Assembly (NCBI RefSeq): GCF_003918875.1
Contig: NW_025765324.1
Span: 24,041-88,040, forward strand
Reading direction: 5' to 3'
Origin: Haliotis rubra
Lineage: Eukaryota
DNA length: 64,000 nucleotides
Positions 2,091-62,658 of this stretch are shown here, one piece after another. The position numbers and the translations under genes are program-made. The notes below the pieces were generated by a model that worked only from the letters and a program-made list of their open reading frames with translations, made no database searches and was not told where the DNA came from. Numbering within the stretch: position 1 is the stretch's first letter; the number at the start of each line of letters is the position of its first letter.

Positions 2091-2155
2091 AACCAATTGT
2101 ATTGTCATGAGTATACAAAATAAATAGTCTTCTTCACACTGCAGGTGACAGTAAC

Positions 2156-3320: not shown

Positions 3321-3334
3321 GGGCGGTATATAAT
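3321..3334. promoter_or_regulatory. GC-box (GGGCGG) directly abutting a TATA-like box (TATATAAT) at the unit 1/2 junction. Equivalent motifs lie at 6667-6680, 10017-10030, 14391-14410 and 14736-14750.
   Basis: Perfectly conserved in every unit. It lies about 560 bp upstream (on the minus strand) of the Gly-rich CDS and about 160 bp upstream of a strong donor site (caag|gtaaat, exon end 3171). This suggests a non-coding first exon and a 5'UTR intron. The TATA box is near-palindromic, so the orientation cannot be fixed from sequence alone. Confidence 0.45.
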
Positions 3335-8859: not shown

Positions 8860-9455
8860 TCAGTAGTAGCCGATTCCTGAAACAGAAAAATAGTTACATA
8901 TAAAATTGGGATTTATGGAAAAGTAACATGGAAATGTTGAAACTGCTTGCACCATAAACTATACCAAGCATTTCAAACAGCTGACAACAGTTTTACAGAT
9001 GTTTATCAACTGACAACAGCTTATTTGCATAAAATAGTACTAATAAATACATGGGTACATGATATCATTTTATAAAAGTGAAGTTTAAAATGGGATAACA
9101 GAAGAAAGAATGACAGCATGTGTTGTGAAATACCTTTTCCTAGTCCGATTCCGTAGCCTGCCATTCCGTAGAGACCACCAAGTCCTCCAAGTCCTCCAAG
9201 TCCTCCATACAGACCTCCCATGCCGTATCCGTATTTGCCTCCGTACAGACCGCCCATTCCTCCGTACAGACCGCCATAGCCTCCGTAAAGACCTCCCTGC
9301 ATTCCACCTATTCCGTAGCCTATTCCGCCCATTCCGCCCATTCCGCCCATTCCTCCATACAACCCAGCCATTCCATATGCTCCATACAGACCGGTTGGCT
9401 CAGCAAAGGCGGTAACAGCCAGGCAGGCAACAAGGACGACGACTATTTTCATCAT
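8860..9455 (-). CDS. Gly/Tyr/Met-rich secreted protein, copy 3. Exon 1 is 9455..9134, exon 2 is 8876..8860, about 112 aa.
   Basis: Same structure as copies 1 and 2. It lacks the HGG motif and has a different count of Leu-Gly-Gly units. Confidence 0.7.
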
Positions 9456-9989
9456 TTTGAGTATCTGTTCAGTAACATAAAAATCATCTTCAAGACAGGA
9501 AAACAACATGTTATCATTACTCGTCTGGAGAATTGACTTCACGCCACTCCTAATGAATAATGTTATCATTTGTCATTTCATATGCATCCACATACTGGAA
9601 AATTTACAAGAACGGTAAATATTCCTTACTTATTCGTACTTTGATGAATTGGATCAATGTAAAAGTTGAAAAAGGAGAGGTGTGCAGCAGAAGAACGAAA
9701 ACTTCAAAGTATACATGTTTACCACAGGCAATACCTTGACCTGGTACTTACAGTTTGGTGTTAACACGTATCTGTGTCTTAACAGCAGGTGAAAATAAGA
9801 GATGATAGAATACTTTCCCCCTCTCCTATATATATACAATTGGTGGACTATATGTGATTGATTTACCTTGGGCTGGCCACTTCCAGGTAAGCAACACACC
9901 TTAACGTTAATGATGTAAACTGATCATTCTATTCGCCTCAAAGGTTCTGCCTGAGGTTATCACCCTAAGGCTATACATGTGTGTTGGTA

Positions 9990-12900
9990 TAGATGAACGT
10001 TCATTTAGGAAGTAGAGGGCGGTATATAATAGGGCGAAGGTGTCTCTTCCTATCTTTCTCCTCTCTCTACGGCATGGTTTAACTGCATTTAAACAACTTC
10101 CAGTTACCCAACGTTTAACCAGTATTAAGCAAATATTAGATAGTAGTTTGGGAGCTGTGTATCCATTACACATGTAATGGAGCAATGTAAAATCAGACAT
10201 TATGATATATGTGCCTGAGACGAAATTACAAAATACGGGGCAACTGAAGCAACGCGCTAGTACAGCGTCGCCACACTACAGCAGTATCACTGTGCTACAA
10301 GGGGTCACTATGCAAACATCTACGTGTAATACTGCAGCCTGTCCACACGATGACTGCATGCTTACTATACTGCAGAAATCCCAATACCCTAATATTCTCC
10401 CCGAATGTTAACAATCTCACCACACTGAAACAAAATACTACAATAGCTTTATTTCCCAAATGTTATATATAAGGTTCTGCCTAGGGTTATTACCCTAAGG
10501 GCATACAAGAGTGTTGGTATACATGAACAGTCACTTAAGGTTGCTTCACACTTATTTCGAATTTACAGCAATCGGGGAGAATCGGCCAGAAAAAAATAGT
10601 TCCAAAATTCGAACCGCATTCGTGAGACAATTTTTTCAAGCTTTGCTATCTGACGTTTCTGTGACAGATGGTGACGTTTTTATGCGATTCGGCGGTGTTC
10701 TGATGACGGCAGGGCTCATTTGAAGAGCATTCGGGACATTCTGAATGCATTCCAGGTGTATTCGAGGTACATTGGAGCTGTATTTCAACTTCAATCGAAA
10801 TGTTCCGATACATTTGAAGAATATTTGAACTCCAGCAGCAATCAAGATACATTCCGACTCATTCGAGGCATTCTGACAGGATTTGAAGTGGCTTGTCTTT
10901 TCTATTCTCCCTCGAATATGTTCAGATTACTTAGAATGCAGTCAGAATGCAGTAAGAATACTTAGAATGCAGTTCGAATGCACCTCAAAAGCCGGTCGAT
11001 ATTTTTCCACTTCGAATGTACCTCGAAAGTTTTGAACATGTTCAAAACATTCGGGCATATTATATTACATGAATTGACCCGAATAGTTGGAATGCATTCG
11101 GAATGCAGTAAGAAGTTTTAGAATTCAGTTCGAATATCCAGGAATCTCCAGAAATTTTCATTCCGACAGCATTCCGGCTCATTCCGCCGTAATGTACTAC
11201 GAGTGAGACTTTAATAAACCTGTGTGTCTGCCGTATGTACAGCCGGTTAATGAAGCAAAAACAAGTACAATTACCTAATCCGTTATCGATAATTGATGTT
11301 CGGAGTCGGAGACTGAAGCATCGGATTAATGAATCAACAATTGATGTGTTTCTACAGTAAATAAGATTGGTTACAGCTTGAGTCAGTTCAGATAGCGAGG
11401 GAATCGGATTATTGGGGACCGGACTAAGGCGGCCTGACTGTATTATTATTCCGGCGTTTTTACTTCCAATCATAACTCAAGAACCAATTAGATGCGTTTC
11501 CAAAACATCATCAAGGTGCCCCTGCAGTCCCGTAGCACGTAAGAGTAAGGAGAGAAAAGGAAAACATGATTCCTTGAAGCCAAGGAGCCATATTGATTAA
11601 GTCGTATCACCAGCGGGCTGTGCAAACACCGTTCGGTTCAGCTAAGGCCACTAAAGAGAAAGTGCCCTTGACAGTTGGAACAACGGGTTCTTGTTCCTTA
11701 AGAATATTTTTCCCGTGGTATCAAATTATATTCTATGATCCATTATTATGAGCTGTGAAAGAAATTGAATCCAAATCAAATCACATAACTTCTATTTGTA
11801 AATCTCTACACTGGAATCATGTTCCATCTCACAATAACTTTCATATCATCCGAATTCTCAAAGGGTAACCTGGTACTAAAGGACCAATTCACATATAGAA
11901 CACGGAGCCTACATCGCTGCTCTCAGCTATATTTTGACCTGAAATTGAATTATTAAAATCAATTTTGAATTATCTGCCCTTTGTCCTTGAACCTTGAACC
12001 TTGAACCTAGAGATGTTTGTGGTAAGCTTCAGGAACAGGTACACCTTGTTGTTTTTGTGATGAGATTCTGACCTCTGTTTTTTTAGTATGATTGGAACAA
12101 AAAACGGCGGAATAATGATACTAATAAATAATAAATCGAACGATTACAATAGGACTCCTGCCTTTCAGGCATGGAGCCCTAAAAAAATACAGAAAAGGAC
12201 AAAAGACAACACATATGAAAACTATATTCCAACTATCTCTCCAACAAAGGTCGTATCTTCACAAAACAATATAGCGGTATCAGTAACAATTTCTGGTGTC
12301 TCCCGCCGTGATATTGCTGGAATATTGCTAAAAGCGGCGTAAAATCATACTCACTCACTCACTCACTCACAAAACAACATAGCGGTATCAGTAACGATGC
12401 ACATGGTTATAATATCACATATGTAGATGAAAGTTTCTTCTACGTAAAAGAAGGGATCTTCTATGTAGATGAAAGTATCTTGTTTGTTTTAGTTCAACAC
12501 CGCACTCAGCAATATTGTGCACAACCATGTGACTGCTGTCTCTAAATAATCGAGTATGGACCAGATATTGTGTGGACCAGAGACTCACTTCATGGGCATC
12601 GATCTACGCATCTGTAATACGATGTCATGCATCAACCAAGGCGGCGAGCCTGTGACCACCCAATCTCGTGGTCACAGCATGTGTTGATGAAGTCCAATTC
12701 AGACCCGGGAAAGAGAGTGAGTTTAGTTTAACGCTGCACCCAGCAATATTCCAGCTATCTGTAAATAATCGACTCTGGAATTCATACCTGGATCTTCACG
12801 GGTAATCACTTACGTAGATAAAAGTGTCTTCAACGTAGATGAAAGTATCATCTACTTAGACGAAAGTATCTTTAAAGAAGGTGACAAAAACAATGAAGAC

Positions 12901-14633: not shown

Positions 14634-14727
14634 GAGAGAGAGAGAGAGACAGAGAGAGAAGGAGAGAGAGAGGGAGAGAGAGAAAGAGAGAGAGAGAATG
14701 AGAGAGTGAGTGATAGAGAGAGAGAGG
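14634..14727. repeat. (GA)n microsatellite.
   Basis: A direct run of agagagag. Confidence 0.95.
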
Positions 14728-15294
14728 AGCACTCTATTATATACCGCCCTCTACTCCCGAAATGAATGTTCATGTATACCAACACACATGTCCACCCTCA
14801 GGGTGATAACCTCAGGCAGACCCGTTGAGGCGAAAACAAATGATCAGCTTACATCATTAACGTTAAGGTGTGTTGCTTACCTGGAAGTGGCCAGCCCAAG
14901 GTAAATCAATCACATATAGTCCACCAGTTGTATATAAAGGAGAGGGAAAAGGTATTCTATCATCTCTTAATCACCTGCTGTTAAGACACAGATACGCGTT
15001 AACACCAAACTGTAAGTACCGTTTCAAGGTTTGCTGTGGTAAATATGTATACCTTGAAGTTGTCGTTCTTCTGCTGCACAACTCTCCTTTATCAACTTTA
15101 CATTGGTCCAATTCATCAAAGTGCGAATAAGTAAGGCATCTGTACATTTGGAAGTATGTGGATGCACATGAAATAAAAAAATGATAACATTATTCATTAG
15201 GAGTGGCGTGAAGTCAATTCTCCAGACGAGTAATGATAACATGTTGTTTTCCTGTCTTGAAGATGATTTTTATGTTACTGAACAGATACTCAAA

Positions 15295-15866
15295 ATGATG
15301 AAGATAGTCGCCGTCCTTGTTGCCTGCCTGGCTGTTACCGCCTTTGCTGAGCCAACCGGTCTGTATGGAGCATATGGAATGGCTGGGTTGTATGGAGGAA
15401 TGGGCGGAATAGGCTACGGAATAGGTGGAATGCAGGGAGGTCTTTACGGAGGCTATGGCGGTCTGTACGGAGGAATGGGCGGTCTGTACGGAGGCAAATA
15501 CGGATACGGCATGGGAGGTCTGTATGGAGGACTTGGAGGACTTGGAGGCCATGGTGGTCTCTACGGAATGGCAGGCTACGGAATCGGACTAGGAAAAGGT
15601 ATTTCACAACACATGCTGTCATTCTTTCTTCTGTTATCCCATTTTAAACTTCACTTGTATAAAATGATATCATGTATTTATTAGTACTATTTTATGCAAA
15701 TAAGCTGTTGTCAGTTGATAAACATCTGTAAAACTGTTGTCAGCTGTTTGAAATGCTTGGTATAGTTTATGGTGCAAGCAGTTTCAACATTTCCATGTTA
15801 CTTTTCCATAAATCCCAATTTTATATGTAACTATTTTTTCTGTTTCAGGAATCGGCTACTACTGAG
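15295..15866 (+). CDS. Gly/Tyr/Met-rich secreted protein, copy 4, in the inverted unit. Exon 1 is 15295..15598, exon 2 is 15850..15866, about 106 aa (MKIVAV variant).
   Basis: ATGATG at 15295-15300. Donor g|gt at 15598/15599. Acceptor ctgtttcag at 15841-15849, then gaatcggctactactga. AATAAA at 15932-15937. A candidate 5'UTR acceptor ttactgaacag ends at 15285, 10 nt before the ATG. Confidence 0.7.
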
Positions 15867-17079
15867 TTACTGTCACCTGCAGTGTGAAGAAGACTATTTA
15901 TTTTGTATACTCATGACAATACAATTGGTTCAATAAAACTTGAAATACAAACGATTTGTGCTTTGTTTGGGAAATCTTAAAGCTGAACTGAAAATTCACA
16001 AAATGGCCAAGCCATCTAGGTTTCTTGATAGAGAAAGAGATTGGCAGTTGAGTGAATTAATTTCATTTCATCAATAAATGGACCCACACTCGGGAATACC
16101 CCACCGCCCCTCATCAATGGATGGACCCATACTCGTCAAATACGACTGACTGCTACATAAAACAACATTTACTCACAATTGTGTCATAATGACATTGAAA
16201 ATGACAAAGCCATGATCGCAAATTGGAACAATTTATTTACTTTATAATATTTCAGAAAGACTGGACAAGTTCAACAGCAGTATTCTAAAGCATCGGAGAT
16301 GGTTTATCATGATAACTAATGAAATGTTGTTTCTAAAATGTTTGACAAATGAGGAACCAACATGCAGTAGTGTGGAGGCTAATATACTGATTATATATTT
16401 ATCAAACAATTGTTGAAAAGAATAGGCCTGAGCAAGGTAAACAGTATAGGAGTTCTCTCCCTTGATCCACAACAGCCTCAGTCCTGCAAAATGAAGTAAA
16501 CAGGCCAAAAGCAACTAAAAGATTTCTAACACATGACAGGAACAAGCACTGAAATTGCATTGTGTAACACAATAATAATTAAAAGGCACTCCATGCACCA
16601 TTTAAAAATGATATTAAATATTGATGTAAGATATGAAATAAATTAATACTTTTCGTCTACCTATTTCTTCAGGCAGCAACTGACATGTTTACTGACTTAA
16701 ACACTCTATTATTATTGAATTTAGTAATATGGAACAAAACATAGAACAAAAAGCTATCAGTTAATTTGTTTAAATAACTGTTCAAATCCAAAGTAAACCT
16801 GTAGTTTCAGTTCCAACACAACACTACCACTTAAAGCCTTTCTCTGAGATAACGAATATTTCTTCATAACACCCCCAGATATATCCAATGTTTGTCTTGT
16901 TAACCTGATCAACAAATACAATGTATACACACAAACAAAATATGGCCTACCCACTCTAACCATCCAAGAAACATTTGGTAAGTCTAACATTTTTCGATAT
17001 CGATTTCGATCTGCTGTTACCTTTTCTTAAAAACTTTGACTCTTCTTTAGCACTATAGTGTGTGCAAACCCTGAGACAA

Positions 17080-17492
17080 CATCGACAACCCATCTGCAGA
17101 CAACCCATCTGCAGACAACCCATCTACCCATCTACAGACAACCCATCTGCAGTCAACACATCTGCAGACAACCCATCTGCAGACAACCCATCTACAGACA
17201 ACCCATCTGCAGTCAACACATCTACAGACCATCTGCAGACAACCCATCTACAGACAACCAACTGCAGATAACCCATCTGCAGTCAACGCATCTGCAGTCT
17301 ACCCATCTGCAGTCAACGCATCTGCAGACAACCCATCTGCAGACAACCCATCTGCAGACAACCCATCTGCAGTCAACCCATCTGCAGACAACCCATCTGC
17401 AGACAACCCATCTGCAGTTAACCCATCTGCAGACAACCCATCAGCAGTCAACCCATCTGCAGACAACCATCTGCAGACAACCCATCTACAGA
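17080..17492. repeat. Minisatellite with a 15-bp unit (cagacaacccatctg), about 27 copies.
   Basis: Visible periodicity. The ORFs 17058..17630 and 17053..17247 are artefacts of it. Confidence 0.9.
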
Positions 17493-17681: not shown

Positions 17682-18480
17682 TTATTGCCGCCTGATCCTG
17701 CGTCTCTGTCCACCATTGTAAGGCTGGTACCGACAACGGTTGAAGTCCACATGCCGAGCCATCTGTTCAAAGTTGTTGTTGCTGTAGGGATGCCACTGGA
17801 AGTTGTCCCTGGATCCAAGGTCTGTCACAAAGCTGCTGTTATCCATGATTTGGCCATACCCACAATCATTTCTCAGCTTCCTGTTGGTGTCCATTGTCTG
17901 TCTGTTTAGAGTGCCACGGTTTATGTTCATGGGGTTGATGTCCTTCAACATTCGGTTCACATCAAGGTTTAGTGGGCGACGTTGGGGCCGAACAGGCTGT
18001 TCCTGTCTGTTCAAAACCTGAGGCAATGCTCGGGAAGGAATGGTGTTACATCCAAAACGAAATATCTCCGGGTTCTTTTCCTGGTTTTTCTGGACATTGC
18101 CAGGGAGATGGAAGCCCCAGGCATCCGAGATGTGAGTCAGCAGCAGGTTGGTAATGCGCCGATGAGCTGTCATGTCCCAGTGTATGCCGTCATCGGCACG
18201 GCGGTGAAGCTGATACCGCAGGAAGTAATGCAGGTCAAGAACATCAAAGTCATTTTCAACCACAACCTTGGCTGCATAATAGTTGGCTTCCAGGATGTCC
18301 AAACGCAGAGTGGAGTTCATGAATTCAATCTCAGGGATTATGAAACCACCCCGAGCATTCTTTGAAATGGGAAGTGTAGTGTTCCAGATGACCAGAGAGT
18401 CAGCAGGCAGCACCTCCTTGAACCGCCTGAACAATGTCTTCAGGTTCTCTTTGTACTCATCGATAGCTTTCACACCATAC
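17682..18480 (-). CDS. PCED1: PCED1-like terminal exon. It encodes (R)YGVKAIDEY…LVIWNTTLPI…FDVLDLHYF…DGIHWD…LLLTHISDAWGFHLPG plus a long C-terminal tail and stop.
   Basis: Acceptor ctgtgttgcag| with a phase-2 start at 18480. It carries conserved SGNH/PC-esterase block III (VIWNT) and the DxxH catalytic motif (DGIHWD). The stop is at 17684-17682. Confidence 0.85.
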
Positions 18481-19639
18481 CTGCAACACAGAAACGTATG
18501 ATCTAACCAAACACATACATTTGCACACAATCACTGAACAGGTCACTAAGTGTGGCAGCTCTTGGTCTGTACAGGTCCCAAGCAACCAAAGCTGGACAAC
18601 GTAACAGATGAGGTAGTCGGGCAGGGTGACCTGGTTGCTTGCATGTCATCATACACCATTGGTAAAGATCTTTGCTCATGACATCAATAAATGGATTGTA
18701 TGGTTTGGACTTAAAGGGACACAGACCTTTGTATTTCTCCAAGACTGGTTGTTGCCTTTGTTGTATTTTTAATGTTGACCAGCAAATCGACCAAGGGCAG
18801 CTAATGAGACCTCTCTGGCAGCTATAGACAGCCTGGGTAAAGCTTGGGATTAGTGCCCCTTTAATTATAATAATTACAGGCTTTATGATGTCACTGGAAT
18901 ACAGCCAAGTGTAGATGCTAACACTGTTATCAAGCAAGTGATAACGATGTTAGAATATACACTGAAACAGCACATCTATTGCAAAAAAGAAGTTGTCTAT
19001 CCATGAAATTATACCAGCTTCTAAATGCCACTTAAAGAAGTTATACTGCAAAGTGTGGCATTAGATCACACACAAACCCACAAACGAACAGCTTATCATT
19101 ATCTGTGAAGGATGAGGTGGTTGAACACTTAACAAGAATATTTTAAGATTGTAGTATTCATGTTAGGATAACAATCATTTCTGGATATGACCCGATGTAT
19201 CAGTGAATTACTAGTATTTACTTGGTCAGACACTAAAAAGACCCTCACCAAATCACAGCCATTTAGTTCGGTGTGGGTGGTAAAAAACTATGCTAGTTAA
19301 AGATGAATTATACAAGTTTGTTGGTTAGTTAATGTCACACTCAGCCGCATTCCAGATATATGACAGCATTTTCTAAATAATCAGTGACAGACTTCATGAG
19401 CATCGATCTACACAGCTGACATAACAAATACATTTAATCAGCGAAGTCACCAAGTCCTGTTAACTGCCTCTTTGGACAAACAAGGGTTGATGAGAAATAT
19501 TCTAACCAAGATTACCACTGACCGCCAAATTCAGTTGCCTCTTATGACCCTTTCAACCCAAGGCTCTTCAAGGCCTAGATTCATAAGCATTATCATTATC
19601 ACACAATACTTTAAGATTGACAATCATCATCTAAGTTAC

Positions 19640-20169: not shown

Positions 20170-21720
20170 AGCTTGATTTTAGACTAAGTGCAAATCGTTT
20201 CCATGGAAATCATGAAAAAAATAAATGACAAAAATCTGCGAATAGCAAAAGGCACCACTTTGGGATCTGCCTCACATATCTGCCAAGTTTTGCTGAAAGA
20301 TATCGAGATGTTTTTGAGTTGTGCTCCGGAAACGAAGCCCACCCCTCACTTTTGGGACTAAGTCCGAATCGTTTCCATGGAAACCGAAAATAAAAATGCC
20401 AAAATCTGCAAATAGCAAAAGGCACAACTTTAGGATGTGTTTGATATATCTACCAAGTTTTGTTGAAATATATTATAACGGTTTTTGAGTTGTGCTCGAA
20501 ACGAAAAGCAATCCTTACTTTTGAGACTAAGTCCAAAAATGTTTCCATGGAAACCAAGAAAAATAAAAATGCCAAAATCTGCAAATAGCAAAAGGCACAA
20601 CTTTAGGATCTGTTTGATATATCTACCAAGTTTTGTTGAAATGTTTTGAATGGTTCTTGAGTTATGCTCCGGAAACAAAGCCCACCCCTCACTTTTGGGA
20701 TAAAGTCCGAATCGTTTCCATGGAAACCGGGAAAAATAAAAATACCAAAAATCTGTGAAGAGCAAAAGGCACCACTTAAGGTTCTGTTTGATATATCTAC
20801 CAAGTCTTGTTGAAAAATATTAAACGGTTCTTGAGTTATGCTCCGGAAACGAAACCCGGCCCTTCCTTTTGAGACTAAGTCTGAATCATTTCCATGGAAA
20901 CCAAAAAAATAATAAATCACAAATATCTGCAAATAGCAAAAGGCACCACTTCAAGATCTGCCTCACATATCTGCCAAGTTTTGCTGAAAGATATTGAGAA
21001 GTTTTCGAGAAGTGCTCCGAAACGGCTTCCACCCTCACTTTTGGGACTAAGTCCGAATCGTTTCCATGGAAACCGGAAAAAATAAAATGCCAAAATCTGC
21101 AAATAGCAAAGGCACAACTTTAGGATGTGTTTGATATATCTACCAAGTTTTGTTGAAATATATTAAACGGTTCTTGAGTTATGCTCCGAAACAAAGCAAT
21201 CCTTACTTTTGAGACTAAGTCCAAAATGTTTCCATGGAAACCGGAAAAATAAAATGCCAAAAAATCTGCAAATAGCAAAAGGCACCACTGTAAGGTTCTG
21301 TTTCATACATCTACCAAGTTTTGTTGAAAAAATATTAAACGGTTCTTGAGTTATGTCTCGAAACGAAGCCCCACCCTCACTTTTGGGACTAAGTCCGAAT
21401 CGCATTCCATGGAAACCGGAAAAACATAAATGCCAAAAAATCTGTGAATAGCAAAAGGCACCACTTTAGGATCTGTTTGATATATCTACCAAGTTTTGTT
21501 GAAAAATACTGAACAGTTCTTGAGTTATGCTCCGGAAACGAAGCCCACCCTTCTTTAAGACTAAGTCCAAAACGTTTCCATGGAAACCGAGAAAAATAAA
21601 AATGACAATAATCTGTAAATAGCAAAAGGCACCACCTTAGGTTATGTTTGACATATCTACCAATTTGGGTTGAAAAATATCGAACGGTTTTTGAGTTATG
21701 CTCCGGAAACAAAATGATTA
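20170..21720. repeat. Satellite with a ~172-bp unit (…gtttccatggaaacc…ctgcaaatagcaaaaggcac…), about 9 copies, inside a PCED1 intron.
   Basis: The motif gtttccatgg recurs at 20196, 20371, 20541, 20714, 20889, 21061, 21228, 21404 and 21574. Confidence 0.9.
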
Positions 21721-25124: not shown

Positions 25125-25995
25125 CAGGGTCTCAATGACTTTCTTTACAGTGAGTCACTCATTAGGGTTTCAGATTTGTTCTATTACAGTGAGTCACTCT
25201 AACAGGTTTCAGATTTGTTGAAATTACAGTGAGTGACATAGCAGGGTTTCTGATTTGTAGCAATACAGTAGTCTTTGTCAGACAGAGTTTGTCTACAAAC
25301 TCTATGACAGTTTCAGATTTGTTCTTTTACAGTGAGTCACTCTATAGCAGGGTTTCAGATTTGTTCTTTTACAGAGAGTCACTCTATAGCAGGGTTTCAG
25401 ATTTGTTCTTTTACAGAGAGTCACTCAACTTCAGTATTTCAGATTTGTTCTACTACAGAGAGTCACTCTATTGCAGGGTTTCAGATTTGTTCTTTTACAG
25501 AGAGTCACTCAACTTCAGTATTTCAGATTTGTTCTACTACAGAGAGCCACTCTATAGCAGGGTTTCAGATTTGTTCTTTTACAGTGAGTCACTCTATAGC
25601 AGGGTTTCAGATTTGTTCTTTTACAGAGAGTCACTCTATAGCAGGGTTTCAGATTTGTTCTTTTACAGTGAGTCACTCTATAGCAGGGTTTCAGATTTGT
25701 TCTTTTACAGAGAGTCACTCTATAGCAGGGTTTCAGATTTGTTCTTTTACAGTGAGTCACTCTATAGCAGGGTTTCAGATTTGTTCTTTTACAGAGTCAC
25801 TCACTCTACTTCAGTATTTCAGATTTGTTCTATTACAGAGAGTCACTCTATTGCAGTATTTCAGATTTGTTCTACTACAGAGAGTCACTCTATTGCAGTA
25901 TTTCAGATTTGTTCTTCAACAGTGTCCCTATCTCTATAGAAGAGTTTCAGATTTGTTCTTTTTCTGTGAGTCACTCTTCAGCAGGGTTTCACTAA
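25125..25995. repeat. Minisatellite with a 42-bp unit (agcagggtttcagatttgttcttttacagagagtcactctat), about 20 copies, inside a PCED1 intron.
   Basis: Visible periodicity. The ORFs 25229..25939, 25332..26096 and 25515..25760 are artefacts of it. Confidence 0.9.
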
Positions 25996-33256: not shown

Positions 33257-34439
33257 AAGAATTACAGTTTAGATATGTGTCACTGTTACCCACAATCAAT
33301 GACATAGGTCAGGACGTTGCCTCACATCTCTGTAGGAAGCGCAACATGCGGGGGCGGACTGCTTGACGGGGTGGTCGCATTGTCCAAGGTCACACAGCCC
33401 AGCACTCCTCCGCCTGCACGTACTCACCACCATCCTGTGTATGACTGGAATGCAGATGCTCGCTGATACAGTACAAGTTCAATTTAGATAAAAACTATCC
33501 CCGTTTCTACACGTTGTCATGGTATTAGTACAGGCGCTAACAACCCTGACCTCACGGATACAATGCGGTCAGAGGTCGATACACCAGGAGTCTGAGATCC
33601 CGATCCTTCTGCTCCAAGTCGTCCTGCGAGAGCGGTGCTGTGACACATTCCACGACTCAAAGATTACCTTTGCCCTGCTCAAACTAATGACAAAGCAACA
33701 CATACATATGGATGCGCCTTTAAACATGCTGCACACATCTACACAAAGAACTTAATTAAGCAACCCCTGTGTTTTTGCAATGGTAGGTTTTCAACACGTA
33801 CATAAAACTTCTCATGGTGACCACGATGGAAAAACATGGGGTTTTCTGACCCGTATGATCCCTTGACTCATAACAAAATCATTGGAATCCATGTTGATTT
33901 TATGATAATTGTTCATTTTAAAAACACACACTGATTTTGATACAAAACCATGTCAAGTATGGCTCTGGAATGTCTGACGCTGAATTTATGAGTGAATGTG
34001 AACATTCAAAATGTCATTTTGCGTGTCTTAAACGATTCAAGGTCAATGCCGAGTGTAACCTCAATGTGACTGTATGGCAGCCAGCACTCTCCTCTTCATA
34101 CCTCCTGTCAGCCTCCTGATCCTCAGAAGGGCCAGACTGCGCCATTCCTCGTGTAAATCAGCTTCCAACGGGCCAGGTTCTGTACACGAGGGTCCCATTG
34201 TTGCACACAACGACCAATCATATTCCAGATATGCTCAAACAGGTTAAGATCGGGATTCATTCAATTGTGCGATATGTCAGGGGGTGCTTAACTAAGTTCT
34301 TTGTATATATTATTAATTTCTTTTTAAATTCACGAAAACCGTTTTTCCCGTGAAGGTTGTGAAAATGATTCACAGGTATATACGCGATGCTTTTATACAA
34401 GGAAACACTGATTTCACAAATTTCTCTTTGAGTAACGTG

Positions 34440-37020
34440 TACACTCTGACCCACACAGCAGTAGTTGGTGTACTGTCTGACTCACACAGCGGTAGTAGGT
34501 GTACAGTCTGACCCACACAGCGGTAGTAGGTGTACAGTCTGACCCATACAGCAGTAGTTGGTGCACAGTGAGACCCATACAGCAGTAGGTGTAGTCTGAC
34601 CCACACAGCGGTAGTTGGTGTACAGTCTGACCAACACAGCGGTAGTAGGTGTACAGTCTGACCCACACAGCGGTAGTTGGTGTACAGTCTGACCCACACA
34701 GCGGTAGTAGGTGTACAGTCTGACCCACACAGCAGTAGTTGGTGTACTGTCTGACCCACACAGCGGTAGTAGGTGTACAGTCTGACCCACACAGCGGTAG
34801 TAGGTGTACAGTCTGACCTACACAGCGGTAGTAGCTGTACCGTCTGACCCACACAGCGGTAGTAGGTGTACCGTCTGACCCACACAGCGGTAGTAGGTGT
34901 ACAGTCTGACCCACACAGCGGTAGTTGGTGTACAGTCTGACCCACACAGCGGTAGTAGGTGTACAGTCTGACCCACACAGCGGTAGTTAGTGTACAGTCT
35001 GACCCACACAGCGGTAGTAGGTGTACCGTCTGACCCACACAGCGGTAGTTGGTGTACAGTCTGACCAACACAGCGGTAGTTGGTGTACCGGCTGACCCAC
35101 ACAGCGGTAGTAGGTGTACAGTCTGACCTACACAGCGGTAGTAGGTGTACAGTCTGACCCATAAGCGGTAGTTGGTGTACAGTCTGACCCATACAGCAGT
35201 AGTGGGTGTACAGTCTGACCCACACAGCGGCAGAAGGTGTACAGTATGACTCATACAGCAGTAGTTGGTGTACAGTCTGACCCATATAGCAGTGGTTGGT
35301 GTACAGTCTGACCCACACAGCGGATGTAGGTGTACAGTCTGACCCACACAGCGGTAGTAGGTGTACCGTCTGACCCACACAGTGGTAGTAGGTGTACAGT
35401 CTGAGCCACACAGCGGTAGTTGGTGTAGTCTGACCAACACAGCGGTAGTTGGTGTACAGTCTGACCCACACAGCGGTTGTTGGTGTACAGTCTGACCCAC
35501 ACAGCAGTAGTTGATGTACAGTCTGACCCACACAGCGGTAGTAGGTGTACAGTCTGACCCACACAGCGGTAGTAGGTGTACAGTCTGACCCTTACAGCGG
35601 TAGTTGGTGAGGTGTACAGTCTGACCCACACAACATGCAGCAGTTGGTGTACAGTCTGACCCACACTGCGGTAGTAGGTGTACAGTCTGACCCACACAGC
35701 GGTAGAAGCTGTACATTCTGACCCTCACAGCGGTAGTAGGTGAGGTGTACAGCCTGACCCACACAGCAGTAGGTGTAGTCTGACCCACACAGCAGTAAGA
35801 GGTGTACAGTCTGACCCACACAGCAGTAGGCGTACAGTCTGACCAACACAGCAGTAAGAGGTGTACAGTCTGACCCACACAGCATGCAGCAGTAGGTGTA
35901 CAGTCTGACCCACACAGCAGTAAGAGGTGTACAGTCTGACCCACACAGCAGTAGGTGTACAGTCTGACCCACACAGCGGTAGGTGTACAGTCTGACCCAC
36001 ACAGTATGCAGCAGTAGGTGTACAGTCTGACCCACACAGCGGTAGTAGGTGTACAGTCTGACCCACACAGCAGTAAGAGGTGTACAGTCTGACCCACACA
36101 GCGGTAGTAGGTGTAGTCTGACCCACACAGCGGTAGTTGGTGTACAGTCTGACCCACACAGCGGTAGTAGGTGTACAGTCTGACCCTCACAGCGGTAGTA
36201 GGTGTAGTCTGACCAACACAGCAGTAAGAGGTGTACAGTCTGACCCACACAGCGGTAGTAGGTGTACAGTCTGACCCATACAGTGGTAGTAGGTGTAGTC
36301 TGACCCACACAGCGGTAGTAGGTGTAGCCTGACCCACACTGCGGTAGTAGGTGTACAGTCTGACCCACACAGTGGTAGTAGGTGTACAGTCTGACCCACA
36401 CTGCGGTAGTAGGTGTACAGTCTGACCCACACAGTGGTAGTTGGTGTACAGTCTGACTCACACAGCGGTAGTAGGTGTACAGTCTGACCCACACAGTGGT
36501 AGTAGGTGTACAGTCTGACCCACACTGCGGTAGTAGGTGTAGTCTGACCCACACAGTGGTAGTAGGTGTAGTCTGACCTACACAGCGGTAGTTGGTGTAC
36601 AGTCTGACCCACACAGCTGTAGTAGCTGTACATTATGACCCTCACAGCGGTAGTAAGTGTAGTCTGACCCACACTGCGGTAGTTGGTGTACAGTCTGACC
36701 CACACAGCGGTAGTAGCTGCACATTCTGACCCACACAGTGGTAGAAGGTGTAGTCTGACCTACACAGCAGTAGGTGTAGTCTGACCCACACAGCAGGAGG
36801 TGTACAGTCTGACCCACACAGCAGTAGGTGTACAGTCTGACCCACACAGCAGTAGGAGGTGTACAGTCTGACCCACACATCAGCAGTTGGAGGTGTACAG
36901 TCTGACAAACACAGCAGTAGTTTGTGTACAGTCTGACCCATACAGCAGTAGGAGGTGTAGTCTGACCCACACAGCGGTAGTAGGTGTACAGTCTGACCCA
37001 CACAGCGGTAGTAGCTGCAC
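34440..37020. repeat. Satellite with a 31-bp unit (ctgacccacacagcggtagtaggtgtacagt), about 83 copies.
   Basis: Regular periodicity. The 686-aa and other long minus-strand ORFs exist only because the repeat lacks stop codons in most frames. 31 is not a multiple of 3. Confidence 0.95.
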
Positions 37021-37199
37021 ATTCTGACCTAGTCTCTCGTACAGACCCTGAAGCAATTATATCCAAGAAAGCCCACGCAAGTCTAGAAAATGTGGCAAGT
37101 CTAGATTTCCTCAGCTTCAGGGCTCCTTTTCATTATATTATATTTTTCTTTACTATGAACATTTTTCAGTAAATTATGTTCATTTCAGAGACTAGTTGT

Positions 37200-48060: not shown

Positions 48061-49890
48061 GTGTATAACTGCAACAGCCTATACTCATCCCCTTCTCAAC
48101 TACTACAGCTTATACCCACCCCCATCTCAAGTACAACAGCCTACATTCATCCCCATCTCAACTATTACAGCTTATACTCACCCCCATCTCAACTACAACA
48201 GCTTATACTCACCCCATCTCAACTACAACAGCTTATACTCACCCCATCTCAACTACAACAGCTTATACTCACCCCCATCTCAACTACAACAGCTTATACT
48301 CACCCCATCTCAACTACAACAGCTTATACTCATCCCCATCTCAACTACTACAACAGCTTATACTCACCCCATCTAAACTACAACACATTATACCCACCCC
48401 GTCTCAACGACAACAGCTTATACTCACCCCATCTCAACTACAACAGCTTATACTCACCCCATCTCAACTACAACAGCTTATACTCACCCCATCTCAACTA
48501 CAACAGCTTATACTCACCCCATCTCAACTACAACAGCTTATACTCACCCCCATCTCAACTACAACAGCTTATACTCACCCCATCTCAACTACAACAGCTA
48601 ATACTCACCCCATCTCAACTACAACAGCTTATACTCATAGCCCCCATCTCAACTACAACAGCTTATACTCACCCCCATCTTAACTACAACAGCTTATACT
48701 CAACCCCATCTCAACTACAACAGCTTATACTCACCCCATCTCAACTACAACAGCTAATACTAACACTTTATACACCCTATCTACTACTTCAATACTCACC
48801 CCCATCTCAACTACACAGCTTAATTATATACTCACCCCATCTCCTACTAACAGCTTGTACTCACCCCATCTCAACTACAACAGCTTATACTCACCCCATC
48901 TCAACTACAACAGCTTATACTCACCCCATCTCAACTACAACAGCTTATACTCACCCCCATCTCAACTACAACAGCTTATACTCACCCCATCTCAACTACA
49001 ACAGCTTATAATCACCCCATCTCAACTACACAGCTTAATTATACTCACCCCATCTCAACTACAACAGGTTATACTCACCACATTATACTCACATCACCCC
49101 ATCTCAACTACAACAGCTTATACTCACCCCATCTCAACTACAACAGCTTATACTCACCCCCATCTCAACTACAACAGCTTATACTCACCCCATCTCAACT
49201 ACAACAGCTTATACTCACCCCATCTCAACTACAACAGCTTATACTCACCCCCATCTCAACTACATACACCCCAGCTTATACAACAGCTTATACTCACCCC
49301 ATCTCAACTACAACAGCTTATACTCACCCCATCTCAACTACAACAGCTTATACTCACCCCATCTCAACTCTACAACAGCTTATACTCACCCCCCTCCTCA
49401 TCTCAACTACAACAGCTTATACTCACCCCATCTCAACTACAACAGCTTATACTCACCCCCATCTCAACTACAACACTCACCCCATCTCAACTACAACAGC
49501 TATACTCACCCCATCTCATCACCATCCTCAGCTACAACAGCTTATACTCACCCCATCTCAAACTACAACAGCTTATACTCACCCCATCTCAACTACAACA
49601 GCTTATACTCAACTACAACAGCTTATACTCACCCCATCTCAACTACACAGCTTATACTCACCCCATCTCAACTACAACAGCTAATACTCACCCCCATCTC
49701 AACTACAGCAGCTTATATACTCACCCCATCTCAACTACAACAGCTTATACTCACCCCCATCGCAACTACAGCAGCTTATTTACTCACCCCATCTCAACTA
49801 CAAGAGCTTATACTCACCCCATCTCAACTACACATCTTATACTCACCCCATCTCAACCACAACAGCTTATACTCACAACTGCTTAACTGC
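48061..49890. repeat. Minisatellite with a 30-bp unit (tactcaccccatctcaactacaacagctta), about 60 copies.
   Basis: Regular periodicity. 30 is a multiple of 3, so long open frames arise (316 and 343 aa, SPHLNYNSLY repeats). These are judged to be artefacts. Confidence 0.9.
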
Positions 49891-50108
49891 AGCAGCCTAT
49901 ACTCACAACCGCTTCATCTATGAATTATCTAGTTTAAATACATAGCGTTAGGTTAGTGTATCGCCGTTTCGTTATTTCATATCTTTATTCCCGTTATATT
50001 AGTGAAGGTCGACCACTCCTCCACCCGCTTTGTCTTGTTTGTTGAAAACATTCTATCTCACAAAGCTTTGCTTCTACCGCTTCCTTTGTCCGTTTTCAGA
50101 TTGTGAGA

Positions 50109-50822
50109 ATGCAGCGCTTATATTCTGTCGACATCCGGGTCAGTGAGTTAGAGCGCATGCGCGTAATATGGAGCGTAAACATTGGAACAGGAAGGACTAC
50201 TTTCGCCTCTGACAACGACGACATAGATGGTGGTTCTGTGTTGTTGTATTACCTCGGCACCATCTACATCAGTCTTTCGGGGGTTGATGGTGACGCAGTG
50301 TCGACGTTGCTAGCCGTTAGAGAAGACGGCTCGAAGGGAACCGTAGTGTATACAACCAGTTATCCCCCGTCAGATTTCGCTATTTACGATGACGTCACGT
50401 TTTGTCATGACGGCACTGTTCAGATGCCCGTAGTCTGGGTTGCTCAGCAACGGGGTTCTGTTATTTCAGCTCTTGACTCTAAAACTAAAGTAATGTTTAT
50501 GAACATTACTTTAAATACCTTACTGAATGTGAAGCACGTCAGGTTATCCTCAAAACTAATGGTACATAAAGATACTGCTGATAGGTTTGTACTCATGTTC
50601 GCATTGAGCGTTGCAAACACCACTGCCGAAAGGTACTCTCAACACCTCGTGACGCTGCAAGGTGTTCTGTCTTCTAAGAAAGCGCCTACCGTGATGTGGA
50701 GTACTCCCTTACCCGATTCGTTTCAGGTTAGAGGCCAAATCAGTCTTGTTAGCGGATCCTATGAGACATTCGTCGCAACTGCTAGGAATATGACCGGTGT
50801 GTATGCTTTTGGCGTCCATTAA
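50109..50822 (+). CDS. Unknown-function protein A (237 aa from the ATG): MQRLYSVDIRVSELERMRVIW…MWSTPLPDSFQVRGQISLVSGSYETFVATARNMTGVYAFGVH*.
   Basis: The ATG is at 50109; the track ORF starts at GTG 50103. A strong acceptor-like tract ccgttttcag ends at 50100, so this may be the last large exon of a spliced gene. It is a paralog of the adjacent ORF B, sharing N- and C-terminal blocks. Confidence 0.4.
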   Translation: MQRLYSVDIRVSELERMRVIWSVNIGTGRTTFASDNDDIDGGSVLLYYLGTIYISLSGVDGDAVSTLLAVREDGSKGTVVYTTSYPPSDFAIYDDVTFCHDGTVQMPVVWVAQQRGSVISALDSKTKVMFMNITLNTLLNVKHVRLSSKLMVHKDTADRFVLMFALSVANTTAERYSQHLVTLQGVLSSKKAPTVMWSTPLPDSFQVRGQISLVSGSYETFVATARNMTGVYAFGVH

Positions 50823-51578
50823 ATGTCGATTGAATAAAATTTAAAATGATTAGTTTTGCCATATTACGAGTGATTCATTAGTGTTTTCCCCTAAATAAAA
50901 CATGTTTTCAATAGAAGCGGTCATGTTTTCATTCAAATGTTGATTGCGAATGTATGTTATCTGTCGTAAAAGCGTTGATCTTATTTGACTGCTTCCTACT
51001 GTGACCTACATTCAGCAACATCTCAGCTTTCCCTTCCCTTCTCACAGCATTCACTGTACCTACAGATGAGCTTGTCCTTCTACTCCACAACCCCTCACAC
51101 GCTGTACAACTGACCTGTCCCTCCCTACCCCACCCCTTGTCATGCAACACCCACTGTACTTACAGCTTACCTGTCTCTCCCCACCCTATCTCTGAAGTAC
51201 CCCTTCATCTGCCATCGTCTCTGTCCTGTGACATGCGCACCTGCTGTCACTGTGACGTATTTGAACAATCCACAATAAAGCCTTTGCTGGCAGATTTTGT
51301 ACTGCAGAATACTGAGAGACCGATATTGTCTGACCTCACTGCAGGGTACCGGGCGGGCGCTGACAGCCGTATTCATCCCTGTCCTAGTAGCACAACATCA
51401 CCCCAACTCTGTAGTTGAGCATTTCCCTTCGATTGTTTGTATAGAGAGACTTTACTGAGCCTATCGGCTATCCTTGCATCGCAAAGGCAAGGTAAAACAC
51501 TGGCTTTTAATGAATGACATATTGTATCACTGATTATATCAGGTTCTTCCATATTTTCCACAGTTGGGCACTCTAGCT

Positions 51579-52967
51579 ATGCAACGTCTGTACGCCATGG
51601 ACATCTTGGATCGCATGGTGAAGCCTATCGATATCGTCTGGTACTTGAACCTGGAACTAGAGGTCAAGGTCAACTACCGGGAACCAGTGAAATCCAAGAA
51701 ATCGCCCCAGTATGAACCGAAACAAACCAGTAAGGACATAGATGGTAGTAAACAGAGGCCAATAGCCAGGATCTCGCGTGAAGCAGTACACCCGAGGAAC
51801 CCGGACAAAATGAATCAGTCTCGTCTATCCAGAAACAAACATGCCACACTAGAGCACGACACGAGATTAAAGTATAAGACGGCTGATCGGGCAGAACGTA
51901 ACTCCTTCGTGCTAGACATGCTAAAACGATCTATAGCAAAGGGTGGCAAAAGCTTTAGGGAACCTACCAACAGTTTGCGTAATCCAGCACATCGACATGA
52001 CGTGTCTTCCGACGTACTTGAAATGGTTCAGCACGAGTCTATACAATTCATCGGTACAGGAAACACAAACAAGTATCAAAACTCTGGTACTTCCCGTACA
52101 GGAAACACAAAGTCTGGTACTTCCGGTACGGGCGGTTACCAAAAGGACCGCCATCCCCCCAGCAACATTCGCCACCAATGGTCTCAGCAGACAAGTGAAC
52201 AGTCAAGTTTGAGCTACTTCTTTGGAACAGTGATGGCCAGCGTGGCTCCCCCTATCGGGATCTGTGACATGCTGACATTGGAGGAACATCGTCAGAGTTG
52301 CCTGGAAAGCTCATTTTCCAGACTGGTAGGCATTCAAGATCTAGGAACCAACATGAGTCTGTTATACAGCAACAACTTCTCTCTATCTCACATGTCAGTC
52401 TATGACTCATCGTACGGCAGAATGGGGCTGCACTCGTCCTGGAACACTTCTATTAAGCAAGAAGACGCGGATCCCAAACACGACAAAACACAAGCTACGC
52501 ACACACAGCAACGGACCAGGCTTGGCGAGGGAAGTCTGGTGTGGGCTGTCACTCAGTTTGGGGACACCATTAACGGATTCGATCAAATCTCAAGCCAGGT
52601 CCAACAAATCGCTAACGTTTCCCAAATGCTGAACACCACAGTACAAGTGACGTCAAGGGTGATGGTAGCCTTAGATCCAAAAACGCACGCTGACCTCCTT
52701 CTGTTCGCCGTAAGACGGGTGAATAAAACTGAGCCCCACTCTTCATTCAATGCCACGAATTACCTAGTTGCCTTGGATACATCCTTTGGTGACGGAGAGG
52801 CAAACATTATGTGGACATTTCCAGTTCCCTATGATTATGAAGTTCAAGGTCAGATTGCCGTGTTGGAAGTTCCATGGGTGAATAGTACCTCACCGCTTTT
52901 AGTCGCAACAGCCCAGGGCCCAGTCAGCCAGATAGCATTCGCATTTAACTTCACCCAGACTCTGTGA
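51579..52967 (+). CDS. Unknown-function protein B (462 aa from the ATG): MQRLYAMDILDRMVKPIDIVW… a long S/T/N/K-rich low-complexity middle …MWTFPVPYDYEVQGQIAVLEVPW…AFNFTQTL*.
   Basis: The ATG is at 51579; the track ORF starts at TTG 51564. The acceptor-like tract tattttccacag ends at 51563. It shares blocks with ORF A (MQRLY.(V/M)DI; MW(S/T).P(L/V)P…(V/E)(R/Q)GQI). Codon usage is GC-richer than the surrounding DNA. Confidence 0.4.
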   Translation: MQRLYAMDILDRMVKPIDIVWYLNLELEVKVNYREPVKSKKSPQYEPKQTSKDIDGSKQRPIARISREAVHPRNPDKMNQSRLSRNKHATLEHDTRLKYKTADRAERNSFVLDMLKRSIAKGGKSFREPTNSLRNPAHRHDVSSDVLEMVQHESIQFIGTGNTNKYQNSGTSRTGNTKSGTSGTGGYQKDRHPPSNIRHQWSQQTSEQSSLSYFFGTVMASVAPPIGICDMLTLEEHRQSCLESSFSRLVGIQDLGTNMSLLYSNNFSLSHMSVYDSSYGRMGLHSSWNTSIKQEDADPKHDKTQATHTQQRTRLGEGSLVWAVTQFGDTINGFDQISSQVQQIANVSQMLNTTVQVTSRVMVALDPKTHADLLLFAVRRVNKTEPHSSFNATNYLVALDTSFGDGEANIMWTFPVPYDYEVQGQIAVLEVPWVNSTSPLLVATAQGPVSQIAFAFNFTQTL

Positions 52968-58440: not shown

Positions 58441-60560
58441 ATGTATTGTATAAACGTGTAGTATAGACATTGCGGTATATATTCCAAATGTTTTTGACTC
58501 GTCCCAAACTGTAAATGCATGTTTAACGCCGCCAAACTCTATACTGTTACAGACATGCTTGTAAATTAATTATAAAAATCTGCCAAGCTTGAACAGCACC
58601 TCCACGATGGTGAATACACTTGTTAAGCACTGACCCCGCTAATCTGGAAATCCTTTCAAGACAGATCTCCTGGACACACCCACCTGTATGAGGGAGTGAG
58701 TTTGGTTTTACGCCGCTTTTAGCAATATTCCAGTAACATCACGGCGGGGGGGACGCCAGAAATGGGCTTTACACATTGTGCCCATGTGGGGAATCGAACC
58801 CGGGCCTTCGGCGTGACGAGCGGACGCTTTAACCATTAGGCTACCCAACCACCTGTATGAATTGTCAGACATTTCACTCAGTAGCTATATTTCATTAATC
58901 TTGAAATGTCTCCGTGGGAATGCAACCGTCCGTATTATGGTGGTATGCTGCAATAAACATCCTCAGGCAGGGCTGGACGGGGTTGAGTGAATGCTATTTA
59001 GCGCCGCAGTGAGCAATGTTCCAGCGTTATTACTTATGACGGACTGTAATTAACCCAGTCTGGACAATTCGATCCAGTGATCAAGGGAAATATGTACGAT
59101 CGTTCCTGCCTTATGGGGTGGTCTGGGTTAAATTAATTTATTCAAATCCGAACTTAGTGGCTTTTACATTTATTTTCTTAAATTAAATAAACATAATATA
59201 TAGTGGAACGATCGGAAGTATTACCCCACCGGATCCATTTGTCAGTGACTGGACGATCCCGTTGGCATCTGCATGCCAATATTGCTTGACTGTGTAGACT
59301 GAGTCGACTGCAAGGGATTCACATTATGCGACAAATCTGAAAGATCTCTTTTCCCGCTTGAGCGGGCATCCCATTGTGAACTATCATACATTGTAACTAT
59401 GTATTGTGAATAACGAATTGCGTGCTTTTGAATTTAGTGCATTGTCATTTTCTGTTTTTTAATAATAATGTAATGAATATATATGCTTTTAAAATAGAAC
59501 TCATTTGAGCTTTGTACTTAAAAGGTGTATTAATTCAAACTTGATCTCGTCACTACATGGCTGGAATAATGCCGATGTTACATAAAACCCAACTCAACTC
59601 AACAGCTGCTCAGACAGCTATCGAGTGCAGGGTACAGCGAGTGAGTATATTTAATGCCGCTTTTAGCGATATACCAGGATTATCGCGACAGTACACCAGA
59701 AACTGGCTTCCAACATTGTAACCATGTGGGGAATCGAACTCAGGTCTTCGGCGTGACGAGCCAACGCTTTAACCACTAGGCTAGCCGACCGCATTGGGTA
59801 CAGTTATCACCCACCCTTTTAGTCGTCTCTTCCGACATGCAACATAACCGTTACTATCACGGTAAAGTCAGTTGACAAAGCAAAACATAACACTCGGGTA
59901 GGAATTACATCTATATTCTATGGTACTAAAACTACTTTTCAATACAGAAGTGTCTTTACAAAGTCGACCTATTTACAGGAGTCATATTCCATCAATATTA
60001 CATACTGACGGTCATAAAATAACATCAATAAAACTGTCGGAAACTTCTAAAATTTCAAATTTACAATGACGTATAATCCTACATGCTAAAGCATCATAAA
60101 TAAAAGCATTTAAATGCACAATAAGATCTACTAGATACTCAACAAAAAATCTGAAATCTTAAAATGATGTAAAATTTCAGGCTATTTCTTGAAACGTACT
60201 ATTTTAAACTAAAATGTCTATTAAGTTTGACAGTCATTGCACCAAAACACGTTGCTAAAATGTCCCCGCATTTTAACACATAGCACTGCAAGCTTTCTGT
60301 CAAAACGGTAAATTCGTTTCGAGCACAGCACTCTTGTTAACACATTCACGTGTTCCTAGACTAAACAATAAACAGAACTAGATAGTATATATCATACACA
60401 ACACGGTGAGTTCATCAATTCCTCAATGAGTCAATATTAAAATCAGTTGCGAATAAAAACAGCTCCTCATCTGGAAAACTGGATTCATGACGAGTCCCCG
60501 TCACAACAACATACACTTGAAATGTGGAATGTAACAGTATACACAACGCAGGTAAACTCT

Positions 60561-61628
60561 CTATGTACGCCGCTTTTTACCTGTGGCCATGCGCGTTGTG
60601 CGGAGAGGAGAGGGGCTGGTTCGAAACTCGGAGTCGTTGTTGAAGGGGCAGTATTTGATGGTGTGGGCGTGGTCCCCGATGGCTTGGCAAATTGGACACG
60701 GGTACTTCCGCAACACTGGGCACGCCGTATAGCCACGAGAATCCTTCAAAACATGCCCGGTGTACACATGTGGTGGTTCCTTGTTGTTCTTGCAAAATAC
60801 ACAGATCAACTTGGATTTTTTCTTCCCCTGCACCTGTAGTTGTGTAACATCGCCACGGGCGGTCTTGCACTGTTTCAGCCACAGGTATTCCTTGATCCGA
60901 TCATTTGGAACGACCGGGATCTCCCGGGTGGGGGGTTCGTGTCCGCGCACTTTCTGCTGTATGATGTCATACTCGTCCAATTCGTATGTAGTTCCGTTCC
61001 TTTCGAATTCCGCAGTTGTTAAAGCACGAAGTCTTTCCTGGTCTAACTTGCTGAAATTCGAATTCACAAGCGGTGGATTTGAAGCTTGGAAAGTTACATA
61101 CTTGAAGCTGTCGCTACTTTCATCCGATGACAGGGAAATATCGGAACTGGGGCTCAGCTCGCCCCGGCCCCCGGCGAACTCCTGACACAATCCAAAGTAG
61201 TCCTGGTAGGGGTCGTAGATGTGGTCGTTGCCCAGACATAACACGTCGCTAAACGCGGAGTCATTCCTACCTGTGAAGTCTTCTTTGGTAGATAAGATTT
61301 TCTTCTTGGCGAGCTGTGGCGTGAATTTGGGGATCTGAGGGAGAAGTAAGCTTTGACTGTATGGAACTTCATCCCCAGCCAGTAGTTCGAAGTCGTCAGT
61401 TGTACGACAATCCCCGGAGTCAGGTTCAAGCACAGGGTGTAGTAGCATTGTGAAATCAGCCACAGGTCGCCTCCGAGTTGAAGATGGTAGCCTCGGTCTA
61501 TGGTGCGCCGCCTTGGATGATACAAATTGGCAGCACTGACGACTCTCGCACCCGGCGCGTGTGACAGTGCACGAAGTCCACGTGCGTTTTATAACTTGCC
61601 ATACGTCCAGGCCGCCAACGACTTTCAT
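60561..61628 (-). CDS. nanos: Nanos-family RNA-binding zinc-finger protein (355-aa ORF, intronless).
   Basis: The C-terminal [53 protein letters not shown] matches the zf-nanos pattern C-x2-C-x12-H-x10-C-x7-C-x2-C-x7-H-x4-C exactly. The real ATG is at 61628. The true start could instead be the internal Met at aa 61 (MLLHPV…). Confidence 0.9.
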
Positions 61629-62479
61629 TGGCTTAGGTTTCTCCCGTCAAATTAACAACGGGGCGGAGCTTACATTATTTGTAAACATAAATCACGTGAC
61701 ACGATAGAACTTGGGGAAACGAAGCAACTTTTTACCAGAAATGTTGATTAAGTTAATATCTTGCATTCCAACCATGGATCTTGATTTAGGAAATACATTG
61801 ATGATGTTTTGGTACGTGAATGCTCAAAGTAAATTGTTTTCAGGCTGAAGGATGAGGACTATTTTTCTAAAAAAAAGATTTAATGGATATACAACTTTTT
61901 TATTCTGTATAGGCGACGTTTCGACATAGATTCTAATGGTGTTGTCAAGCAAGTGATGACAACGACATTAGACAACGACATTAGAATCTATGTCGAAACA
62001 TCGCCTATACAGAATAAAGAAGTTGTATATCCATTAAATAAATTTATTTTTAACATAGTCCTCATCCTTCATCCTTCATCTACCCAACTTCTAGAATGCC
62101 AATCAAAGAACTGTTTTCAGGGTGACATGGAAAAATAACTTTTAAAAATATTGGAAACAATATCGATGTGTAATGCTTATGCTGTTAATTGTATACAAAC
62201 ATATACAGTTAATTACATATTACATAGCATCAACTTGACCTACCACACAAGGAATGTGGGACCAGCCTGGGAGGACGGACAACAGTGACACATTGTAACA
62301 CAACATGTGTGATATAACAACAGTATTGCTACGAGGTTTCAAACACGGCGGTTATGTTTGAAGAGTATCACAGTGAGGGACAGTTCTTGGAAACCAATAC
62401 TCGCAATGCAATGTCATGCTATATAAAATAACCCGTGAAAAGGGGTGTTTGAAAGTGTTTTGTTTAACGCAATATTCCA

Positions 62480-62658
62480 GGTGATCGGGTGGTCAGACTC
62501 ACTGACTTGGTTGACACATGTCATCGTATCCCTATTGCGTAGATCGATGTTCATGCTGTTGATTCCTTGATTGTCTGGTCCAGACTCGATTATTTACAGA
62601 CCGCCGCCATATAGCTGGAATATTGCTGAGTGCGGCGTAAAACTCAACTCACTCACTC
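62480..62658 (+). mobile_element. SINE-A copy. An inverted copy at 62728-62905(-) sits about 70 bp away.
   Basis: Consensus match. The two copies form a head-to-head pair. Confidence 0.8.

Follow-up and report, generated by a model that had tools for sequence, protein, structure and literature searches.

The nanos locus of Haliotis rubra: a probable single-exon orthologue of HasNanos with a conserved 3′ flank

Described Nanos proteins and the H. rubra locus

The closest described system to the locus reported here is HasNanos of Haliotis asinina (ACT35656.1/C7EAA0; Kranz et al. 2010, J Exp Zool B 314:267, as cited in PMC8871563). PMC8871563 lists ACT35656.1 as HasNos and, summarising Kranz et al., describes its mRNA as maternal and localised to micromere lineages, subsequently concentrated in the D quadrant and, later still, present in the mesodermal bands and primordial germ cells. 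More distant points of reference are the vertebrate and Drosophila proteins. In human Nanos1, residues F40, W43 and Y46 of the NIM enter a pocket of CNOT1, and D45 and L49 are invariant (Bhandari et al. 2014, PMC4003280); the NIM occurs in all vertebrates and in some invertebrates (PMC4003280). Drosophila Nanos is without a NIM and has instead a 187-aa effector domain, the NED (PMC5207322).

In the window (the whole 64-kb stretch of DNA that was analysed), the program-made list of open reading frames contains an uninterrupted 355-codon ORF with an ATG start on the reverse strand (60561–61628), exactly as the first-pass annotation had described it. We consider it highly probable (roughly 0.93) that this locus is the H. 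rubra orthologue of HasNanos, a functional nanos gene whose 295-aa protein is encoded by a single-exon CDS at 60561–61448 (−). The CDS consists of 295 codons and a TAG stop, and its product (60564–61448) proved identical, by exact-sequence look-up, to the H. rubra RefSeq protein XP_046559469.1. The latter is the existing gene model for the locus and is labelled ‘uncharacterized protein LOC124268527’; it differs from the product described here in name alone, the automated annotation having made no nanos call. A search of 5.8 billion proteins matched the 295-aa H. asinina ‘Nanos-like protein’ (C7EAA0/ACT35656.1) with an E-value of 6e-196. The two proteins share their start, stop and length, the H. 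asinina protein beginning exactly at Met61 of the ORF, and 287 of the 295 residues (97%) are identical with no gaps; all eight substitutions lie N-terminal to the zinc finger. The 90% cluster to which the product belongs also holds the H. asinina, H. rufescens and H. cracherodii proteins, each of 295 aa. At the DNA level, the H. asinina genomic locus is orthologous to that of H. rubra, with promoter and 3′ flank alignable; H. rubra differs in having a 250-nt inverted-repeat insertion and in lacking an upstream in-frame stop.

Collinearity with the H. asinina protein shows that the CDS is without an intron, in agreement with the intronless ORF originally proposed. A GT following ACAG near the stop codon (60588) was considered as a splice donor and rejected, since the orthologous proteins all end in MATGKKRRT.

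The zf-nanos domain, comprising two CCHC zinc knuckles, occupies 60645–60803 (−), which corresponds to residues 216–268 of the protein (residues 276–328 of the ORF). As read from the translation, its spacing is C-x2-C-x12-H-x10-C, a 7-residue linker and C-x2-C-x7-H-x4-C, with all eight ligands present, and this is the exact arrangement that had been reported for the C-terminal part of the ORF. The profile comparison that had been named beforehand as the test of the nanos call returned 80.5 bits with Pfam PF05741, a score three times as high as the curated threshold of 27 and far outside chance (E 1.1e-22; profile positions 1–53 of 54), and no other Pfam family was matched in the ORF. Solved Nanos structures were matched as well, namely Drosophila 5kl1_B and 5kl8_B (E 2.3e-16) and 3alr_A, a ‘Nanos protein’ (E 4.1e-14). 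Together with the identity to the RefSeq protein and the 97% identity to H. asinina Nanos, these matches bear out the assignment as a nanos homologue.

We aligned the window with three further abalone loci: L002 and L003, the two assemblies with the protein that H. rufescens and H. cracherodii have in common, and L004 from H. asinina. Within the zf-nanos codons of the four loci, only one of the 106 first and second positions is variable, compared with 15 of the 53 third positions. No second zf-nanos sequence was found in the 64-kb window.

Vertebrate Nanos1–3 (zebrafish structure 3ALR) have in common with the abalone protein the zinc-finger architecture and an N-terminal Ar-x2-Ar-x-D-Y-x2-L spacing, and outside these two elements similarity is undetectable. 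The finger of Drosophila Nanos (5KL1, a Nanos–Pumilio–RNA complex) aligns to that of abalone over 59 residues. This alignment ends right after the finger, the abalone tail having no match to the Pumilio-contacting tail, nor is there similarity between the abalone protein and the Drosophila NED or the C-terminal region past the finger.

It is likely, by analogy with the family (PMC4003280, PMC5207322), that the zinc finger would bind target mRNAs, probably together with Pumilio on UGUA-type 3′UTR elements, while an N-terminal motif would recruit CCR4–NOT via CNOT1 and so bring about translational repression and deadenylation. The Pumilio partnership of the abalone protein is assumed here from the other Nanos proteins. 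Judging from the reports on the 97%-identical orthologue, H. rubra nanos mRNA would be supplied maternally and become restricted to mesodermal and primordial germ cell lineages.

The first-pass annotation had also spoken of a ‘posterior determinant’, which is a role of the Drosophila gene and specific to insects; the roles reported in gastropods concern the 4d/mesodermal lineage and the primordial germ cells. A related reading accepts the gene as a true nanos and takes its main role in abalone to be somatic, in 4d-derived mesoderm and posterior growth, such that it would not be a specific germline marker. Knock-down of nanos in Tritia/Ilyanassa removes mesodermal and endodermal tissues (PMC8871563), and HasNanos is, according to the same source, broadly maternal and present in mesodermal bands as well as in primordial germ cells. 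However, that source also reports expression in putative primordial germ cells; the sequence does not separate a somatic from a germline role, and the two roles are compatible. We regard a mainly somatic role as possible, if rather unlikely.

On the preferred reading, an orthologue of HasNanos, the gene itself is already known, both through its RefSeq model and through the characterised orthologue cloned in 2010. What the analysis contributes is the correct name for an H. rubra gene that RefSeq calls ‘uncharacterized’, a fixed start codon and the limits of its likely promoter and 3′UTR, which may be of use for germ-cell marker probes. Reproductive-sterility work in abalone aquaculture is another possible use. 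No new biological question is opened, the expression of the orthologue having been described in 2010 and the architecture being that of a textbook Nanos. The added value is modest and lies in the candidate NIM-type CNOT1 motif in a mollusc and in the visible constraint on the 3′UTR.

Translation start, selection and promoter

The four-species alignment shows that the protein is the 295-aa form, starting at the internal Met at 61448, and that the 60 codons upstream of it (61449–61628, −) are non-coding, made up of the core promoter and a predicted 5′UTR that happen to be open in H. rubra only. The first-pass annotation had raised the possibility that these codons are 5′UTR, and the internal Met is borne out as the true start by the 295-aa length of every orthologue, by stops upstream in the three other species and by the lack of codon-phase bias. 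In the 180 nt upstream of the Met, the variable sites fall 13, 5 and 8 in the three phases, with no third-position bias and one indel column, whereas in the CDS they fall 13, 8 and 66, with no indel column in 885 nt. Upstream of the annotated Met the frame is interrupted by stops in L002, in L003 and in L004 alike, and L002 and L003 additionally carry an indel there.

The placement of the promoter elements points in the same direction. An invariant TATAAAA box lies at 61587–61593 (−), identical in all four abalone species, and from its position transcription is predicted to start ∼25–35 nt downstream, at ∼61555–61565. The ATG at 61628 with which the 355-codon ORF begins is the tail of a CCAAT box at 61627–61631 (−; AGCCAATGAA) that is likewise invariant in the four species, the last three bases of the box and the G that follows holding this ‘first ATG’, 35 nt upstream of the TATA box. 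From this box down to 61448 the sequence is free of ATG. At position −3, Met61 has an A in each of the four species, compared with a C for the first ATG. It is from the stops and indel in the relatives, the absence of phase bias, the placement of the CCAAT and TATA boxes, the lack of an intervening ATG and the −3 context that we assign the extension to promoter and 5′UTR.

It is very improbable, by contrast, that the full 355-aa ORF is translated as an N-terminally extended Nanos specific to the H. rubra lineage. The frame is indeed open from 61628 in the H. rubra genome, where one T-to-A substitution, as compared with the other species, has removed a TGA 17 codons upstream of Met61 (CAT-AGA-CCG in the window, CAT-TGA-CCG in the relatives). 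However, the ATG at 61628 is probably untranscribed, since it lies within the CCAAT box and upstream of the conserved TATA box, and its context is poor compared with that of Met61. The stops and the frameshift in the three other species, the absence of third-position bias upstream and the 295-aa length of the H. rubra RefSeq model likewise speak against it. In the exact-sequence look-up the 355-aa version was absent from all databases. Exact look-ups of the window protein and of the H. asinina protein in assembly collections gave no hit. One Logan contig (L001, DRR299178) includes sequence upstream of the TATA box and thus looks genomic rather than a transcript.

The distribution of variable sites over the 295 codons shows that the nanos CDS is under purifying selection across the four abalone genomes. 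The intronless CDS might suggest a processed pseudogene or inert nanos retrocopy, but this is very improbable, given an ORF that has stayed intact at one locus in all four species and has alignable flanking blocks, strong purifying selection (third positions make up 76% of the variable sites, and indels are absent), a conserved promoter, no other zf-nanos in the window and an H. asinina orthologue that is an expressed gene. Several animal nanos genes are intronless.

High conservation of the functional nanos gene and its flanks is unbroken in the four-species alignment from ∼61820 to ∼59870 and collapses on either side. Upstream of the CCAAT and TATA boxes, a block of 45 nt is almost invariant and includes the motifs CACGTG and CCGCCC. 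The conserved upstream promoter block at 61661–61698 (−) reads GTGTCACGTGATTTATGTTTACAAATAATGTAAGC.CCGCCC and is invariant in the four species apart from one position, with the E-box CACGTG at 61693–61698 and the GC box CCGCCC at 61661–61666. Both motifs are putative transcription-factor sites.

Two further features lie upstream of this region. A MITE-like hairpin at 61842–62075 (element ∼61848–62100), ∼230 nt upstream of the nanos CCAAT box, has 105-nt inverted arms that are 88% complementary and a 24-nt loop; the three other abalone genomes lack this 250-nt inverted-repeat insertion at the orthologous position. Near-identical CCTGAAAACA(G/A)TT sequences on either side of the element form a possible target-site duplication. 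An Rfam scan of 59000–62600 returned nothing near a gathering score, the best match, a miRNA-precursor family (MIR9481, 34.7 bits; gathering score 130), being only the MITE-like hairpin. Upstream of the inserted element, at 62120–62388, there is a second conserved non-coding block (57–63% four-way identity and ∼85% to H. asinina), which may be a distal regulatory region of nanos.

The N-terminal motif and the 3′ flank

The N-terminal two thirds of the product had been characterised as unique, low-complexity and S-rich. The description of its composition was overstated, as serine enrichment is confined to a 21-aa low-complexity acidic segment rich in Ser, Asp and Glu (61098–61160, −; 43% Ser); the N-terminal 215 residues as a whole contain 8.8% Ser, and their commonest residue is Leu (11%). 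As to uniqueness, an exhaustive HMMER search of residues 1–215 against 1.84 billion representative proteins matched only the H. asinina orthologue and P0010, a 159-aa fragment (E 6.6e-5). With just these two matches the region is largely lineage-restricted, though on account of P0010 not entirely unique.

Within this region, residues 78–91 (61176–61217, −) form a NIM-like short linear motif, a candidate CNOT1-binding site of the form aromatic-x2-aromatic-x-D-Y-x2-L. At the key NIM positions the abalone residues are Y, Y, D, Y and L, with the exact spacing, and the motif carries no substitutions among the four abalone proteins. It differs from its vertebrate counterpart in having Y/Y in place of F/W (Phe40 and Trp43) and in lying 78 residues into the protein, whereas the vertebrate motif is near the N-terminus. 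Related sequences occur in two other proteins: P0002, a zf-nanos protein, has YNPFSDYLGL near its N-terminus, and P0010 has three blocks in common with the abalone protein, one of which aligns the NIM-like motif to YSPFHDYFGL. A search of PDB sequences with the motif, covering chains of at least 20 residues, such that the 17-residue NIM peptide may be absent, yielded a chance match only (AP-3 mu-1, E 1.5). The NIM-like motif is the best-supported route to an effector mechanism for the abalone protein, as a candidate for binding CNOT1.

The 3′ flank is the other element of the locus in which constraint is visible. Over the 671 nt that follow the stop codon, 14% of ungapped sites are variable, compared with 22% of CDS third positions and 61% of the next 260 nt, and because the flank varies less than either of these it appears to be under purifying selection. 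The conserved segment (59890–60560, −; ∼670 nt) is predicted to be the 3′UTR. Its conservation collapses near 59870. Just one poly(A)-signal-like hexamer, AATATA (59912–59917, −), is conserved throughout the four species; it is followed by the GU-rich stretch GTGTTATGTTTTGCTTTGT, which sits where conservation ends, and cleavage is predicted to occur near this hexamer; the canonical AATAAA was not found in the 3′ flank.

The suggestion that the 3′UTR be searched for localisation elements thus had a mixed outcome, with constraint evident and specific elements not. A match to the Pumilio-response-element (PRE) consensus, UGUAAAUA at 59970–59977 (−), is invariant in the four species, but as a single occurrence it is not significant against Markov-simulated sequence (P ∼0.15). 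By the same comparison, four conserved CPE-like UUUUAU motifs are not significantly enriched (P 0.056), and no Rfam family was hit. The fold energy of the 3′UTR (z = −2.1 on 20 shuffles) is no more than suggestive. Our claim is accordingly limited to constraint on the 3′UTR and does not extend to specific elements.

The conserved 3′UTR would be a likely site of the post-transcriptional control behind the expression pattern of the orthologue. Tentatively, and with somewhat less than even odds, localisation, stabilisation or translational gating of the maternal nanos mRNA in an equally cleaving mollusc could be the work of the flank, acting as a dedicated cis-regulatory module through elements matching no Rfam family. 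If this were so, then together with the NIM-like motif it would imply that the CCR4–NOT docking mode and 3′UTR-based control of nanos date to the common bilaterian ancestor.

Directly past the conserved 3′ block, at 59727–59783 (−), there is a tRNA-like match that stays below threshold (21.7 bits; gathering score 29). H. asinina has this sequence as well and L002 and L003 do not, a pattern suggestive of the insertion of a tRNA-derived SINE.

Other features of the window

The remainder of the window is rich in repeats. A unit of ∼3.35 kb is present as three tandem repeats of 98–99% identity (2000–3400, 5360–6747 and 8704–10097) and as an inverted fourth copy of 92% identity (14700–16006). The ORFs at 2318–2875 and 9021–9569, within these repeats, encode a signal peptide, MKIVVVLVACLAVTAFA, followed by Gly/Met/Tyr-rich repeats (GLYGG, GMGG); neither has a Pfam match, and they may represent a secreted structural or shell-matrix-type gene family.

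Two minisatellites yield long spurious ORFs. That at 34437–38406 has a 31-bp unit in ∼129 copies and raises the GC content to 0.51, and that at 48067–49906, built of ∼50 copies of a 30-bp unit, shows a strong enrichment in C on the forward strand, which accounts for the GC skew of −0.76 at 48–50 kb. Further tandem arrays lie at 20177–21710 (174 bp, 8.9 copies), 25310–25991 (42 bp, 16 copies) and 17084–17492 (15 bp, 28 copies).

A Pfam search of five neighbouring ORFs gave no match. Long ORFs without a Pfam match are found at 50103–50822 (+), 51564–52967 (+) and 17682–18530 (−). The first two have similar beginnings, MQRLYSVDI and MQRLYAMDI, and could represent exons, or else paralogues, of a gene that lacks annotation.
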